64,000 nt of DNA from an uncultured Gammaproteobacteria bacterium (lineage in GTDB: Bacteria > Patescibacteriota > Microgenomatia > UBA8517), in contig CAZRGC010000003.1 in the NCBI GenBank assembly GCA_964599625.1, positions 97,759-161,758 on the forward strand. The letters run 5' to 3'. Of the stretch, positions 27,732-37,265 are shown piece after piece. Every line of letters begins with the position of its first letter. The stretch's first letter is position 1. The notes under the pieces are model-generated. The model was not told where the DNA came from. It saw nothing but the letters and a program-made list of their open reading frames with translations, and did not search any database. The position numbers and the translations under genes are program-made.

Positions 27732-28511
27732 ATGTCTGGCCCCGATTCCCCTTTTCACTCAGACTCAAGTGTTTTCGAAACAAAAAACTCTCATATAGAC
27801 ACCCCTTTAGAGACAGTAATAAAAGCGGATTATTGGGCCAATTCACATTATCCTCAAATGTGGATAGCAAAACGCCTGGTTACAACGCACGCAGCTTTGG
27901 AACAGGTGCTTGCGGGAAAGTTGTTGTGGAGTGATTTTTCCACATCACAACTCCCCGACGTTTTTATTGAACCCCATATGAAAGAAAAGGCAAATAAAGC
28001 ACATGCTGCATATGGGCAACCTGCAATAATGGATCGTGATCTTAACAACCTGTGGAGGTCTGATGTAAGTGATGTATCAAATACACTTTGGAATTTGCTG
28101 CCCGACAAGGGAGACCCGTTGGAAATCCAAGACGTAACAATTGCCAAAGCCTTGAAAGACCCAAAAAATAAACAGTTTTTTGGGTCGTTGTTGGGTGTAT
28201 TGGCGGCAGAGAAGTCGGCCTTGGAAAGCCAGGAGTGCCTGGAGATATCAAAAGACCTGCGTGAGTCATTAAGAGACCTTCATCATAAAAAATTTGACCG
28301 CGGGTATAGTTTTTCTTTAAAGGAACAAGCTGACTTAAGGGTCAGATGGAACGCTATTTCAGACCGTCTCGAGTCTGTTTTGCAGCGGGAGCTTTCAAAG
28401 GCCAATCAAAAAGCAAAACTGATGCTTAACGATAGCCAATTGGAGTTTCTAACGCATCAAATCCATGTTGGTTCGAGAGTTGTGGCCAGTACGCCGATGG
28501 AGTCTTTTTGA
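27732..28511 (+). CDS. Hypothetical protein inserted between rpsG and fusA
   Basis: 259-aa ORF with no recognisable motifs. Occupies the position where fusA normally follows rpsG directly. Confidence 0.5.
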   Translation: MSGPDSPFHSDSSVFETKNSHIDTPLETVIKADYWANSHYPQMWIAKRLVTTHAALEQVLAGKLLWSDFSTSQLPDVFIEPHMKEKANKAHAAYGQPAIMDRDLNNLWRSDVSDVSNTLWNLLPDKGDPLEIQDVTIAKALKDPKNKQFFGSLLGVLAAEKSALESQECLEISKDLRESLRDLHHKKFDRGYSFSLKEQADLRVRWNAISDRLESVLQRELSKANQKAKLMLNDSQLEFLTHQIHVGSRVVASTPMESF

Positions 28512-30805: not shown

Positions 30806-31600
30806 ATGAATTTCTTTAAGAAAGTTGCTTCTAGTGTTTATTCCCCGGAGTTCTATTCCCAAATACCCAAAATGACACTTGGTTCTGTGTTGGGTTATTT
30901 TTTCTTGCTGCTTCTAGTGGTCGAACTTGTCATGTTTGGCAAAAGCATGCCGGAGTTTATGTTTGGTTTCTCAGGAAAGATAAAATCTACAATAAGCGAG
31001 GTTATCGACACTTATCCCAGTAATTTGGTTTTGACAATCAAAGATGGAGCGCTTTCCACCAATGTTAAGGAGCCTTACTACCTTATGGATAAAACCAACA
31101 ACAAGTTCGCGGTTATAGACACAAAAACTGCATACTCTGCCGATCAATTTAAAAAGTACAACGTACCGGTCTGGGTTACCAAAGATACTGTTTTTTACCA
31201 AGACAGCGACCAAATCAAGAGCAATAGTTTTGTAGAGATGAAAGATATGGTGGTAAACAAAGAACTTGTAAACAGTTTTTCTGCCAAAATATCTCCCTGG
31301 ATTCCATATTTTGGCCCTGTTGTTATGATTTTTGCACTCGTAACTCTTTACGCCCTCCAATCTTTCAGACTGGTTTATGGGTTTTTCCTTGCACTTTTAA
31401 TTTTGCTGGTTGCCAAAATGACCAAGAAAAGTCTGACGTATAAAGAATCTTACAAAGTAGGGATATTTGCCATGACACTACCCTTTATTTTAGAAGCGCT
31501 TAATACCTATATCGGTTGGAAGGCTTTTCCGTTCACTTTTACTATAATTGCACTTATTGTTGTTGGCGTAAATTTTGCAGGATCCAACTCGAAGAAGTAG
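30806..31600 (+). CDS. Hypothetical integral membrane protein inserted between fusA and tuf
   Basis: 264 aa with hydrophobic helices at the N- and C-termini (..LGYFFLLLLVVELVMF.., ..VMIFALVTLYAL.., ..IIALIVVGVNF..). Confidence 0.5.
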   Translation: MNFFKKVASSVYSPEFYSQIPKMTLGSVLGYFFLLLLVVELVMFGKSMPEFMFGFSGKIKSTISEVIDTYPSNLVLTIKDGALSTNVKEPYYLMDKTNNKFAVIDTKTAYSADQFKKYNVPVWVTKDTVFYQDSDQIKSNSFVEMKDMVVNKELVNSFSAKISPWIPYFGPVVMIFALVTLYALQSFRLVYGFFLALLILLVAKMTKKSLTYKESYKVGIFAMTLPFILEALNTYIGWKAFPFTFTIIALIVVGVNFAGSNSKK

Positions 31601-32985: not shown

Positions 32986-33291
32986 ATGGCAATTAGACTA
33001 AGAGTCAAACTTAAAAGTTATGACCACAGGGTCTTAGATGAAGCAGCCGGTAAAATTATAGATACCGCGCTATCATCTGGTGCAAAAATTGTCGGTCCTA
33101 TTCCTCTCCCCACAAACCGCAGCGTAATGGCAATCAAAGAATCACCATTTACGGACAAAGACGCTCAGGAACACTTTGAAGTTCTAACCCACAAAAGACT
33201 TATTGATATTTTGGACCCAACCCCCAGAACTGTTGATTCTTTGGGCAACCTCGACCTCCCTGCGGGAGTTTCTATCGAGATTAAGATGTAA
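32986..33291 (+). CDS. rpsJ: 30S ribosomal protein S10
   Basis: [34 protein letters not shown]-like signature. Confidence 0.95.
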
Positions 33292-33318
33292 GGCCTCTTG
33301 TTCGACCAAACCCCATAG

Positions 33319-33346
33319 TTGGAATAACTGAACTACCTGATATAAT
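33319..33346 (+). promoter_or_regulatory. Island promoter P1 (CCCATAGTTGGAA-16nt-TATAAT)
   Basis: TTGGAA 33319-33324, TATAAT 33341-33346. Shares the CCCATAGTT(T/G)G upstream motif with P2-P4. Confidence 0.5.
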
Positions 33347-33392: not shown

Positions 33393-33701
33393 TTGACTAT
33401 GGATCCGATAAGAGTAGTTGTTGCAGTGGATGGCGACAAGGCAAAGTTCCACACCACTTTTCCGTTGGACGTGTATTTACCAGGACGACAAAAAAGGTCT
33501 GAAAAAGGCCAGGAGCTGGTAAACAAGTTGAAAGAGGTCAAGGGTATTAAAAACGAAGAGTTGGATATCTGGATCTACGAATATGAAATTTCGGCCAATA
33601 AGCTACACGCCTTTAAATGGAAGGATGAGGTCGCACCTGCTGTAGTTGAGGTTCTCAAGACCTTTTACAATCTCGGCACAGTCGAAATTGTATACGAATA
33701 A
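33393..33701 (+). CDS. Island ORF1, hypothetical protein (102 aa)
   Basis: ORF with its own promoter and downstream terminator. No recognisable motifs. Confidence 0.5.
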   Translation: MTMDPIRVVVAVDGDKAKFHTTFPLDVYLPGRQKRSEKGQELVNKLKEVKGIKNEELDIWIYEYEISANKLHAFKWKDEVAPAVVEVLKTFYNLGTVEIVYE

Positions 33702-33734
33702 TACCCTGTCCGAATATCTGTTGTGTTAGTTTTT

Positions 33735-33771
33735 GCTCCGCTTTGTGGAAATTTCCCGGGCGGAGTTTTTT
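33735..33771 (+). terminator. Rho-independent terminator, repeat-module copy 1 (GCTCCGC-loop-GCGGAG + TTTTTTGTGGC)
   Basis: 6-7-bp GC stem, 18-nt loop, T6 tract. Confidence 0.6.
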
Positions 33772-33793
33772 GTGGCCAACATTAGTCCCATAG

Positions 33794-33823
33794 TTGGATT
33801 TATGGTGGTTAATCTGCTAGAAT
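33794..33823 (+). promoter_or_regulatory. Island promoter P2 (CCCATAGTTGGAT-18nt-TAGAAT)
   Basis: Hexamers at 33794-33799 and 33818-33823. GGAGG RBS before the ATG at 33867. Confidence 0.45.
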
Positions 33824-33866
33824 CCGCTAGCACGTTGAATTATTACAGAACGTCCTTGGAGGAACA

Positions 33867-35015
33867 ATGATTCTTGGACTGAAATTAACTGTCGAAAACG
33901 ACGATATTGTCGACATTGGCGGAGATTTGTACGTCAAAAACTCCAAAGCCATGAAGCGTCTTCACAGGGAGCTTCGCTACCTGGGATACCAAATCGACAA
34001 CTTGCGGCACGATAAATACCGCTTGGACAAGGGAGCCACCCCGCGCGAAATGGAAAAAGGTGGTTGGTCGCTTTGGTTTGCCAAGTTACCCAATATCAGA
34101 CGTGGTGTCTGTGGAAGCTGTGGAGCAACCATTTCCACTCTCGGCATTCAGTCACACGGCCACAAATGCGAGAGGTGCGGCGAAGTGACCTACTGGGAAA
34201 TGGTGGAAGGATCAGTAATCCGGTTCGTCTTTTTGCAAAAAGAGGGCCGTGGAATGTGGGATCCCGAGCTTAAGATGAAAGTGCACCATTGGGATACGCG
34301 TGAAGGGCTTTTATATCTTTACCCGGAAGCCTTGGAAGGTGGCCTTTCGACTGTGACGGGAGATACAGCACGGCAGTACTTGGGCAATAACCACGAAAAG
34401 TGGAATGTAGTCACGATCGATGGCCAAAAAATTATCGTGATCAAGTACCCCAAGCAGTGGCGGCGCGATACGGCTGTTATCGAACCTTATGAGATTTACG
34501 GTCATCAGTGGAATCACAAGATCGTCAAAATCTACAAAGGTAAACATTACAGTGACTGGGACCGGCTCCCTGTTCCCGAGACATTTTCTATCTACGAAAC
34601 CTGGCACTGGGACAAGCTTGTGGCTTCGCCAACATTGCACAGGCGTGTATTGCAGGCTGTTCACAACACCGATGACAAGGGTTGGCACTACCAAGACGGT
34701 CGTCCCTGGTTTAGAGAAGGAAGCTGGAAGGGCATGGCAAAGTTTATTCGCCATTTTACAGCCCTTGATGCTGATGCCTTTGACCGAGCCTGGCCACGTT
34801 TCAGAAACGACGGTCCCGGCGGGATCGACGACTTGGCACACTTCTGTCACCCCAAAGCCATCACTCGTGATGAGCCAAACATAGGTAATGTTCTTGTTGC
34901 CATGGGGAAACGCATGGAAAATAAGTCTCTCACGCGCGATGAGATCGAAGCAGCCAAACGCGGCTTGAGCGATCCATTGACGGGTGATTTTTTACGTTCC
35001 CTGCGTAAGCGTTAG
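33867..35015 (+). CDS. Island ORF2, hypothetical Trp/His-rich protein with a Cys4 zinc ribbon (382 aa)
   Basis: CGSCG...HKCERCG cluster. Many W/H/Y residues. Higher local GC by eye. No family motif recognised. Confidence 0.55.
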   Translation: MILGLKLTVENDDIVDIGGDLYVKNSKAMKRLHRELRYLGYQIDNLRHDKYRLDKGATPREMEKGGWSLWFAKLPNIRRGVCGSCGATISTLGIQSHGHKCERCGEVTYWEMVEGSVIRFVFLQKEGRGMWDPELKMKVHHWDTREGLLYLYPEALEGGLSTVTGDTARQYLGNNHEKWNVVTIDGQKIIVIKYPKQWRRDTAVIEPYEIYGHQWNHKIVKIYKGKHYSDWDRLPVPETFSIYETWHWDKLVASPTLHRRVLQAVHNTDDKGWHYQDGRPWFREGSWKGMAKFIRHFTALDADAFDRAWPRFRNDGPGGIDDLAHFCHPKAITRDEPNIGNVLVAMGKRMENKSLTRDEIEAAKRGLSDPLTGDFLRSLRKR

Positions 35016-35028
35016 TTTTGGAGTCTCA

Positions 35029-35066
35029 CTCCGCCTTGTGGAAATTTCCCGGGCGGAGTTTTTTGT
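35029..35066 (+). terminator. Rho-independent terminator, repeat-module copy 2 (CTCCGCC-loop-GGCGGAG + TTTTTTGTGGC)
   Basis: 7-bp stem, 16-nt loop, T6 tract. Confidence 0.65.
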
Positions 35067-35087
35067 GGCTAAAATAAGCCCCATAGT

Positions 35088-35116
35088 TTGACATAACTTT
35101 GAACCTTTGATATATT
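35088..35116 (+). promoter_or_regulatory. Island promoter P3 (CCCATAGTTTGACA-17nt-TATATT)
   Basis: TTGACA 35088-35093, TATATT 35111-35116. Confidence 0.55.
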
Positions 35117-35156: not shown

Positions 35157-35660
35157 ATGGGAATTACCCATGCAGAGGGTGTTGACTTGCAAGAGTGGGC
35201 GAATGCTCACAAACCGGATGATGACTTGATTTACAGGGATGGTTATTGGCATCAAATCATCTTTGTCCGGGATCGCTTGCCACAGCCGCTTTTTGGCTCA
35301 TACGAAGAGTACAAAGCCAATCCGGTACGCGTGGTGGGTGATCATACAAGCAAATCAGTACTCCTTCCTGTTTACAGTATCAAATTTGCTCCTCTCGAAA
35401 TTCGGATGCGTTACAACTTTTACGACTGGAAAGTGAGTGTGGTATCTCAAGTTCCCATCAGGTCGAACTTTTACCCGTTCCTTTTTAGAGATGAAGCTGT
35501 GCACCCGGTTTATTTTGAGGGTTTTACCAATGACTGGGTTTTTGGCTCCTACTCTGCCGACAACACCAAATTTTCTGTTGAAATTAGCAACGAACACATG
35601 TTGTTCGCTTTCATGGCTATTTTAGCGGGTGATTTGGGCTTGGGAGGCAATAAGAAGTAG
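35157..35660 (+). CDS. Island ORF3, hypothetical protein (167 aa)
   Basis: GAGAG RBS. No recognisable motifs. Confidence 0.5.
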   Translation: MGITHAEGVDLQEWANAHKPDDDLIYRDGYWHQIIFVRDRLPQPLFGSYEEYKANPVRVVGDHTSKSVLLPVYSIKFAPLEIRMRYNFYDWKVSVVSQVPIRSNFYPFLFRDEAVHPVYFEGFTNDWVFGSYSADNTKFSVEISNEHMLFAFMAILAGDLGLGGNKK

Positions 35661-35672
35661 TTTGGAGCTCAA

Positions 35673-35710
35673 CTCCGCTTTGTGGAAATTTCCCGAGCGG
35701 AGTTTTTTGT
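35673..35710 (+). terminator. Rho-independent terminator, repeat-module copy 3 (CTCCGC-loop-GCGGAG + TTTTTTGTGGC)
   Basis: 6-bp stem, 18-nt loop, T6 tract. Confidence 0.6.
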
Positions 35711-35731
35711 GGCAAAAACAAGTCCCATAGT

Positions 35732-35761
35732 TTGACAAAGCCTCGAATATGGTTTTATAAT
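35732..35761 (+). promoter_or_regulatory. Island promoter P4 (CCCATAGTTTGACA-18nt-TATAAT)
   Basis: TTGACA 35732-35737, TATAAT 35756-35761. Confidence 0.55.
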
Positions 35762-35804: not shown

Positions 35805-35846
35805 AGGCAGCTTTTTACCCGTAAAATTTATGGTTGAAAAGCTGCC
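35805..35846 (+). promoter_or_regulatory. 10-bp stem-loop in the 5' UTR of island ORF4 (GGCAGCTTTT ... AAAAGCTGCC)
   Basis: Perfect inverted repeat with a 22-nt loop, about 75 nt upstream of the ORF4 ATG. Confidence 0.4.
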
Positions 35847-35922
35847 TACGGATGATAGTGAGGCGTATGGGAGCACTCCTAAAACAAAAACCAAATAAAA
35901 ATTAGAAAGTAACAGGAGCAAA

Positions 35923-36300
35923 ATGTCTCAATCTCAAAAGCGCGTTTCCGAACGCGAGGTACCCGAAGTCAATCCCAACAAGAGGTTTTTCCCAGACTTT
36001 CCTCTTTGCAACGACACGGCTACCCACACAAGCTATTCATACAGGAACAAGAAGGATGTCGGTGAAAAGGGTGTCGCCTTGGTAGAGGCTGTTTTGGCAA
36101 TCCACGGCGTGATCGATCTGACGATCTCAAAGAATGAACTTCGGGTCGTCAAACAACCTGCCCACACCTGGGAAGAGGTTACACCTTTGATCCACAATGC
36201 TTTCAGGCATGTTTACGGCGACGATATCAAATTTATCGGAGAAAACAAGGCTATTTTGGCCTACAGACGTCTCCGAGTTGCCATGAACGTGGCTAAGTAA
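35923..36300 (+). CDS. Island ORF4, hypothetical protein (125 aa)
   Basis: AGGAG RBS. No recognisable motifs. Confidence 0.5.
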   Translation: MSQSQKRVSEREVPEVNPNKRFFPDFPLCNDTATHTSYSYRNKKDVGEKGVALVEAVLAIHGVIDLTISKNELRVVKQPAHTWEEVTPLIHNAFRHVYGDDIKFIGENKAILAYRRLRVAMNVAK

Positions 36301-36393: not shown

Positions 36394-36539
36394 TCCGAAT
36401 AACAAATATGGTGGTTACAATGTTTGCTCAACCACGCTAAGTTAGTCTTTGGCAGATGCCTCACTGGCGCCTTCCGAAGGCGCTTTTTTGTTTAATGTCC
36501 TTCGACTCGCAAGAGCTCGCTCTAGGATCCAAAACAAAT

Positions 36540-37265
36540 ATGATCAACACAATTTTAGGTTCCAAGCTGAAAAACAGTCAAACCTTCTTGCAAGGGTTTA
36601 GGATTCCCGTGACCAAAATCATGGCAGGCCCCTGTACAGTCACTCAAATTAAGAAAATGGACAAAGATGGATATTGGGCAGTTCAGATCGGATTCGGTAC
36701 CAGACGCACCAAAGTTACTTCAAAAGCACTCCAAGGACACCTCAAACTAACAGCAAAAGAAAACCTTTTCCCCAGACATCTTAGAGAAATAAGATTAACA
36801 GAAGAACCCGAGTTTAAAGTAGGCGATACAATAAATGTCGCCGATATTTTTGCTGCAGGGGACGTTGTTGCTGTCACTGGGGTTTCCAAAGGCAAGGGAT
36901 TTGCCGGCGTTGTCAAAAGGCACGGTTTTCGTGGAGGACCCAGAACTCATGGACAATCTGACCGCGAACGCGCACCCGGATCAATCGGACAAACAACAAC
37001 ACCAGGCAGGGTCTACAGAGGCAAAAGAATGGCAGGAAGAATGGGTGGCGAACAAATAACCATCAAAAATTTGCATGTGGTATCAGTGAATGCAGACACC
37101 GGCGAGGTGGAAATTTCAGGACAGGTTCCGGGATCCGTTGGAACACTTCTTTCAATCAAAAAGATCAAAGCAGGCAGTCTTAAAGATTTGGAACACGAAA
37201 CAGTTGCTCAGGTAGTAGAAGGAGAAGGTGCTAAGGTTGCAGGTTCGGCACCAAAATCAGAATAA
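36540..37265 (+). CDS. rplC: 50S ribosomal protein L3
   Basis: L3 signature (..GVSKGKGFAGVVKRHGF.GGP..HG). Start placed at ATG 36540; the longer ORF-track start at 36456 would read through the leader hairpins. Confidence 0.9.
   Translation: MINTILGSKLKNSQTFLQGFRIPVTKIMAGPCTVTQIKKMDKDGYWAVQIGFGTRRTKVTSKALQGHLKLTAKENLFPRHLREIRLTEEPEFKVGDTINVADIFAAGDVVAVTGVSKGKGFAGVVKRHGFRGGPRTHGQSDRERAPGSIGQTTTPGRVYRGKRMAGRMGGEQITIKNLHVVSVNADTGEVEISGQVPGSVGTLLSIKKIKAGSLKDLEHETVAQVVEGEGAKVAGSAPKSE

Follow-up and report, generated by a model that had tools for sequence, protein, structure and literature searches.

ORF2 of the rpsJ-rplC island in a CPR-type genome belongs to a small, unannotated protein family of Patescibacteria, DPANN archaea and their phage-like or integrative elements

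In the 64-kb stretch of contig CAZRGC010000003.1 considered here (the window), which belongs to a small, low-GC genome of the candidate phyla radiation (CPR) type, the interval between rpsJ (32986-33291) and rplC holds an island of four open reading frames (ORFs), while the rest of the surroundings is a standard str/S10/spc ribosomal gene cluster. The biggest of the four, ORF2, is the subject of this work, and its location, size of 382 amino acids (aa) and rank as the largest island protein are as given in the original prediction, which had been made from the sequence alone. The genes and signals of the island are as follows.

33867-35015, + strand: ORF2 coding sequence, 382 aa, ATG start; member of an unannotated Patescibacteria/DPANN family
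33858-33862, + strand: Shine-Dalgarno sequence GGAGG, 4 nt ahead of the ORF2 ATG, read from the sequence
33794-33823, + strand: putative promoter-like site of ORF2 (-35 TTGGAT, 18-nt spacer ending in TGc, -10 TAGAAT)
35027-35065, + strand: intrinsic terminator of ORF2, hairpin followed by U6 (RNA fold -21.2 kcal/mol, z = -2.8)
33724-33810, + strand: 87-nt terminator-plus-promoter module, copy 1, which ends ORF1 and starts ORF2 (75% identity to the reference copy)
35017-35103, + strand: 87-nt module, copy 2 (reference), which ends ORF2 and starts ORF3 (promoter 11/12)
35661-35747, + strand: 87-nt module, copy 3, which ends ORF3 and places a promoter ahead of ORF4 (85% identity; promoter 12/12)
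33393-33701, 35157-35660 and 35923-36300: the other island ORFs (ORF1, ORF3 and ORF4, respectively)

The signals that separate these genes are variants of one repeated unit. Each 87-nt module is laid out as a stable hairpin with U6 (-19 to -21 kcal/mol), followed by a CCCATAGTT(G/T)GA box that leads into a -35/-10 pair, and within the window the full module is confined to the island. The terminator core, GCGGAGTTTTTTGTGGC, is present in exactly three copies in the 64 kb, all of them inside the island, and the 12-nt CCCATAGTTKGA box occurs there in four + strand copies, the fourth lying right after rpsJ (33312-33323). Since a module or box precedes each island gene, each of them can be regarded as its own cassette. 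The promoters before ORF3 and ORF4 are near-perfect sigma-70 sites (11/12 and 12/12); that of ORF2 is weaker, falling under the threshold of the consensus scan, yet it sits in copy 1 of the repeated module. ORF2 had been described as flanked by its own promoter and terminator, and of the two the terminator is real and well supported, whereas the promoter is plausible; ORF2 would thus largely form its own transcription unit. The repeated terminator module was not found in JGI metagenome contigs, and an Rfam scan of the island gave nothing over gathering scores. It is also of note that three short-read contigs bearing ORF2 (L001-L003, ~1.3 kb) seem to terminate within or close to the 87-nt repeats.

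A homolog search that covered 5.8 billion proteins returned 102 homologs of ORF2, mostly full length and 35-69% identical, and an exhaustive search of representatives identified 197 family clusters at 50% identity. Those homologs that carry a name are called 'hypothetical protein' and none has a Pfam domain; the earlier statement that ORF2 has no recognisable homology is correct for characterised families, and wrong in that more than 100 unannotated homologs exist. Nonsynonymous divergence (dN) amounts to 0.27 between ORF2 and the copy at the sister locus and to 0.20-0.34 between ORF2 and its closest relatives, with synonymous sites saturated, so that dN/dS is not quantifiable. Because dN stays within this range while synonymous sites are saturated, the substitution pattern marks ORF2 as a true coding sequence maintained by purifying selection. 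Its AlphaFold2 (AF2) model has a predicted local distance difference test score (pLDDT) of 94.8. The protein carries no signal peptide, transmembrane or hydrophobic segment (the maximal 19-residue Kyte-Doolittle average is 0.69), and is soluble and cytoplasmic.

In the model, ORF2 is composed of four modules, the last of which contains a predicted short beta segment and a helical bundle with a degenerate EF-hand-like motif.

Residues 12-66, 33900-34064, + strand: N-terminal beta-beta-alpha-beta domain with short helices (DSSP on the model, conservation, kept in short variants)
Residues 82-104, 34110-34178, + strand: predicted C4 zinc ribbon, C82-x2-C85-x15-C101-x2-C104
Residues 105-231, 34179-34559, + strand: beta-rich middle region, model strands at 107-229
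Residues 232-375, 34560-34991, + strand: C-terminal conserved core (conservation; helices in the model)
Nucleotides 34800-34850, + strand: degenerate EF-hand-like loop FRxDGPGGIDDxAxFCH, within the C-terminal core

The C-terminal core is the most conserved part of the protein, with the motifs LPxPE..SIYExWHW, QDGR, HFTxLD, PNIGN and G..LT..E..A, and the family-wide form of its EF-hand-like loop is FRxDGPGGIxDxAxFCH. In the N-terminal domain, which is part of the conserved core, G40 and Y41 are invariant. The zinc ribbon proposed in the original prediction is borne out by the family, its CxxC-x15-CxxC pattern being present in 151 of 154 full-length relatives (with a spacing of exactly 15 in 147) and C82, C85, H97 and C101 being invariant in this region; the motif itself, however, had been written as CGSCG-x17-HKCERCG, and the gap between these two strings is 12 residues. 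Much of the middle region (roughly residues 110 to 205) is deleted in the short variants P0101, P0147, P0153 and P0161, and can thus be considered an optional insert, while P0157, P0175 and P0218 are devoid of both the zinc ribbon and the middle region. All short variants keep the first and last modules, which for this reason are taken as the functional core, with the ribbon as an accessory.

The comparison of these modules with known domains yielded likenesses that fall below the limits of recognised families. Searches of Pfam (with ORF2, 60 members and 25 C-terminal domains), PHROGs, NCBIfam and PADLOC produced nothing beyond weak zinc-ribbon matches, and a profile search with 100 diverse members for annotated distant relatives gave nothing new. 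The weak matches are to C4 zinc ribbons (Zn_ribbon_RRN7/TFIIB, Zn_ribbon_ACC, Zn_ribbon_TiaS), with which ORF2 shares two CxxC knuckles on beta hairpins, 15 residues apart; Zn_ribbon_RRN7 was matched by 18 of the 60 members and Zn_ribbon_ACC by 12 of 60, in all cases below gathering scores, the best E-value in the family being 0.0024 (Zn_ribbon_RRN7) and ORF2 itself reaching 14.4 bits against a cut-off of 24.5 bits. Unlike known ribbons, that of ORF2 represents ~6% of the protein, is inserted between domains, has an extra invariant histidine (His97) and is missing in some relatives. Zinc binding is predicted from the ligand pattern, and the ribbon says nothing on the function of the remaining protein.

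For the C-terminal core, searches of the PDB by sequence (with the single sequence, a full-length profile and three domain profiles) gave only sub-threshold similarities to EF-hand pair domains (calmodulin, polcalcin, the EF-hand region of dystrophin). The 12-residue loop of a canonical EF-hand has acidic or polar ligands at positions 1, 3, 5 and 12 (DxDxDG....E), whereas the ORF2 loop reads x313-x-D315-G-P317-G-G-I320-x-D-x-A324, in which ligand positions 1, 5 and 12 have been lost, position 5 being an invariant proline and position 12 an alanine. Matches of the N-terminal region to de novo designed beta-alpha-beta proteins in the PDB were generic and were rejected as homology. The middle region gave weak fold matches to PilZ/split beta-barrel and Sm-like small barrels, with an E-value of 0.13 (not significant) and a TM-score of ~0.2; the PilZ motifs RxxxR and D/NxSxxG were not seen in ORF2, and the region is dispensable in short relatives. 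Likewise, the features by which a TnpB, IS605 OrfB or HNH protein would be recognised (RuvC/HNH motifs, an OrfB_IS605 or OrfB_Zn_ribbon profile, a TnpB/Cas12 fold) were not found in ORF2. Finally, comparison of the ORF2 model with solved and viral structures identified none with a similar fold. Set against sequence libraries and against solved and viral structures, the family and its architecture are provisionally without a described relative, and new in that sense only.

The distribution of the family is sporadic. A scan by pattern, in which each GTDB species was represented by a single genome, led to 21 family loci, which lie in Woesebacteria, Collierbacteria, Paceibacterota, Magasanikiibacteriota, Gracilibacteria, Saccharimonas, Saccharibacteria, Kaiserbacteria and Buchananbacteria, as well as in three DPANN archaea (Woesearchaeota, Nanoarchaeota); five of the loci come from metagenome-assembled genomes (MAGs) labelled Proteobacteria or Bdellovibrionales, whose binning is unchecked. 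Two IMG/VR contigs also carry a family member, and its neighbours there (PNKP, LPD29, DUF6011, an HD domain, DUF5131) are of a kind typical for phages or mobile elements; no match to the family turned up in collections of cultured phages and plasmids. In short, the ORF2 family is small, unannotated and scattered across domains of life, its members residing in Patescibacteria (CPR), in DPANN archaea and in the phage-like or integrative elements of these organisms. An all-against-all BLAST of ORFs across 28 loci revealed no recurrent neighbour. The suggested co-occurrence of ORF2 with ORF1, ORF3 and ORF4 is likewise refuted, tblastn having found no homolog of any of the three in ~35 loci of ORF2 relatives. 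The island as a functional operon was rejected on both counts. In about 9 of roughly 24 independent contexts, hallmarks of mobile elements or defence systems lie near the gene, the remaining contexts being unremarkable; examples are listed here by locus.

L009 and L040: large serine recombinases near the family member
L040: LexA-like repressor, RhuM and a restriction-modification system
L037: TnpB, resolvase, RNA ligase and SSB
L035: 2017-aa fusion with a PHP domain, surrounded by toxin-antitoxin, Fic and ORF6N genes
L016, type IV coupling protein; L017, reverse transcriptase; L021, small DNA ligase directly upstream
L033: PNKP near the family member

The fusion at L035 (10001-16054, P0243/P0156) has a signal-peptide-like hydrophobic N-terminus and, besides its PHP phosphoesterase domain, contains the ORF2-family module (residues 267-648); it is located on a 498-kb contig amid Fic, ORF6N, toxin-antitoxin and helix-turn-helix (HTH) genes. 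It is the single fusion cluster among the 150 representative clusters listed of the 197. At another locus (L038, 3447-8481), several consecutive genes that lack annotation are found upstream of the relative, among them those for a ThiF/E1-like protein and an 87-aa product, and together they could be a ubiquitin-like conjugation cassette; a run of this type was not seen in the other loci.

The patchy, mobile-element-linked distribution resembles that of the polyvalent proteins of phages and conjugative elements, which carry LPD domains (Iyer et al. 2017, PMC5512222), and the likeness extends to the relative embedded in the multidomain PHP protein and to the LPD29 protein on a family-bearing viral contig. 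In contrast to polyvalent proteins, nearly all family members stand alone at ~380 aa, and the family has no Pfam LPD match; the text of PMC5512222 contains no zinc-ribbon or CPR terms and does not mention the family.

ORF2 relatives are located between rpsJ and rplC in three related genomes, namely those of the window, of L007/L008 and of L039. The closest relatives, P0002 (69% identity) and P0003 (64%), occupy this same interval, but their companions are not those of the window: there are small membrane proteins and, in addition, an unrelated 139- or 158-aa ORF. ORF2 is thus the constant element of the insertion in one clade. The membrane proteins (L007 7806-7991 and 9160-9402; L039 379-567 and 1730-1972) are of 61-62 aa and 80 aa, have 2-3 predicted helices and tightly flank the ORF2 homolog; as a feature of the family, such small transmembrane partners were rejected, being restricted to L007 and L039 and absent in the window and other loci. 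Between the window and L007, ORF2 is 69% identical, and the adjacent L3 and L4 are 70% and 65% identical, respectively, which fits a long co-inheritance of ORF2 with its ribosomal flanks. The G+C content at third codon positions (GC3) reaches 0.50-0.56 in all four island ORFs (0.56 in ORF2), compared to a mean of 0.37 and a maximum of 0.468 in 63 background genes; the L007 copy, at 0.50, is also far over its flanks (0.25-0.34), and in 9 of 27 loci a family member has the highest GC3 of the locus. Two explanations come into consideration for the foreign-looking GC3 of the island: the genes may have been acquired from high-GC CPR donors and ameliorated slowly, or their synonymous sites may be under selection.

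These observations can tentatively be brought together by considering ORF2 as an accessory protein of mobile-element origin that acts by binding a partner, and which has become fixed as a cassette between rpsJ and rplC. The protein would travel on mobile elements and, in one Microgenomates-type clade, would have settled in the rpsJ-rplC spacer as an independently transcribed cassette. It would bind a protein or a small ligand through its conserved N- and C-terminal core, most likely through the C-terminal part, and would most likely be a non-enzyme, with the zinc ribbon and the beta insert serving as optional docking modules. The most plausible setting for such a protein would be conflict between element and host, be it defence, anti-defence or takeover. 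The mobile-element origin and any conflict role are inferred; the sporadic distribution, the contexts of the relatives and the foreign-looking GC3 speak for this reading. A binding function is favoured over a catalytic one because an invariant polar triad is missing and because the EF-hand-like loop has lost its ligand positions 1, 5 and 12.

As regards catalysis, the C-terminal core does offer residues from which an active site could be assembled. Among 60 full-length members, Q276, G278, T298, C327 and H97 are invariant, and H258, H296, D277, D306 and N338 are conserved at >=90%. ORF2 could thus be an enzyme of new fold, with Q276/D277/R279, H296/T298 and C327/H328 lining a C-terminal active site, and with the ribbon and insert positioning a macromolecule, for instance a protein or the end of a nucleic acid, as the substrate. 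The occurrence of enzymes that act on nucleic-acid ends in the vicinity of some relatives, namely a DNA ligase (L021), an RNA ligase (L037) and PNKP (L033), would agree with such an activity, as would the fusion of one relative of 2017 aa to a PHP phosphoesterase domain. However, the ligase and PNKP neighbours are not recurrent. In the wider alignment of 100 sequences, only glycine, proline, tyrosine and one cysteine hold at >=90%, leaving no polar residue at this level and no invariant polar triad; QDGR, GPG and FCH are replaced in divergent members (e.g. P0147, P0157, P0217), and neither fold nor profile comparisons matched ORF2 to an enzyme. An enzymatic role therefore appears doubtful, although likelier than the alternatives that follow.

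A more specific version of the binding hypothesis would see in the family a new fold and a new class of conflict proteins, each encoded by one gene, that pass between CPR bacteria, DPANN archaea and their phages, and in which the pseudo-EF-hand core binds a host target and the ribbon and beta insert are swappable specificity modules. Such a protein could serve as an effector in defence or anti-defence, or help to take over the host; taken as a whole, we regard this version as unlikely. A search of PADLOC-DB v2 found no defence hidden Markov model (HMM) match at E-values up to 1 for ORF2, ORF1, ORF3 or ORF4.

The amino-acid composition of ORF2 had originally been read as the mark of a nucleic-acid- or carbohydrate-binding protein, on the basis of unusually many Trp, His, Tyr and Arg residues. 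All the strings quoted in support are indeed present, at residues 82-86 (CGSCG), 99-105 (HKCERCG), 140-147 (HHWDTREG), 211-218 (YGHQWNHK), 246-250 (WHWDK) and 272-289 (GWHYQDGRPWFREGSWKG). Measured against the 63 other genes of the window, the enrichment is clear for Trp (3.9% vs 0.78%, p = 5e-7) and His (4.5% vs 1.44%, p = 5e-5), and merely mild for Tyr (3.9% vs 2.5%, p = 0.06) and Arg (8.1% vs 5.3%, p = 0.014). The functional reading does not follow the family, however, in which most of the W/H-rich strings are not conserved (only W70, W246, H97, H258 and H296 are) and in which the conserved aromatic residues W70, W246, F120 and F297 look like core residues. In addition, the isoelectric point (pI) of 9.1 makes the window copy an outlier in a family that is acidic, with a median pI of 5.8, a median net charge of -8 and a median pI below 6.4 in every domain. 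The lack of a signal peptide or hydrophobic segment makes an extracellular carbohydrate-binding role unlikely, and no carbohydrate-binding module or nucleic-acid-binding fold was found above noise. A binding role deduced from composition is consequently improbable.

The location of ORF2 within the str/S10 cluster would find a direct explanation if the protein were a lineage-specific translation or transcription factor whose ribbon binds the ribosome or RNA polymerase. This idea draws on the rpsJ-rplC position in three related genomes, on a divergence rate similar to that of L3 and L4, and on the fact that TFIIB/Rrn7-type ribbons are the commonest weak Pfam matches. Nevertheless, all other relatives lie elsewhere, with no linkage to ribosomal or RNA polymerase genes, the distribution is sporadic rather than clade-wide, and the zinc ribbon is dispensable in some relatives; within the window, a plausible promoter and a terminator of its own indicate that ORF2 would be transcribed apart from the ribosomal genes, and its GC3 is unlike that of every ribosomal gene. 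Such a role is hence very improbable.

The possibility that the spacer is non-coding, and ORF2 a spurious reading frame or a pseudogene in decay, has nothing to speak for it beyond the unusual location and GC content of ORF2. It is refuted by the conservation of length and motifs in 102 homologs, with a dN far under the saturated dS, a confident structure prediction, and a ribosome-binding site and terminator adding to this, and its likelihood is negligible.

If the negative searches hold, ORF2 represents a well-folded family without a described relative that is common to CPR bacteria, DPANN archaea and their viruses. Such families are candidates for what is still unexplained in the biology of ultra-small episymbionts and of their mobile elements, and this one, given its roughly 200 sequence clusters and a model of very high confidence, is easy to work with; solving the structure of ORF2 would probably reveal a new architecture. 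CPR genomes abound in unannotated families, so that interest in any one of them is moderate, and no specific new mechanism is indicated for ORF2. The island also shows that the otherwise near-universal adjacency of rpsJ and rplC can be broken by cassettes bounded by promoters and terminators, with rplC keeping a conserved leader.

Among the other island genes, ORF3 (35157-35660) is part of an unannotated family of its own, represented by 56 homologs that are 35-60% identical and for which a Zambryskibacteria (CPR) MAG is the sole named source; Pfam gave no domain for ORF3, and viral contigs held nothing closely related to it. ORF4 (35923-36300) shows a weak match to the N-terminal domain of the Nfu/NifU scaffold (E-value 2.4e-5; 24.7 bits vs a cut-off of 27 bits), and its long upstream region contains a 21-nt inverted repeat (35805-35847). 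Elsewhere in the cluster, a 259-aa ORF with no family match (27732-28511) lies between rpsG and fusA as a non-ribosomal gene of the str cluster, and a 264-aa membrane protein (30806-31600) is encoded between fusA and tuf, its same-position counterpart in L007 being annotated DUF1189.

The rplC leader (36405-36500, ~100 nt) is almost identical to L007 9530-9615, amid divergent flanks. It consists of a GGTGGTT/AACCAC hairpin followed by a terminator-like hairpin (36466-36484) with a U-run, has no Rfam match, and looks like a ribosomal-protein leader or an attenuator of the L3-L4 operon. The mechanically called start of the rplC ORF (36456) overlaps the terminator-like hairpin of this leader, and L3 itself probably begins, as it does in L007, at the ATG that opens MINTILGSK, near 36540.
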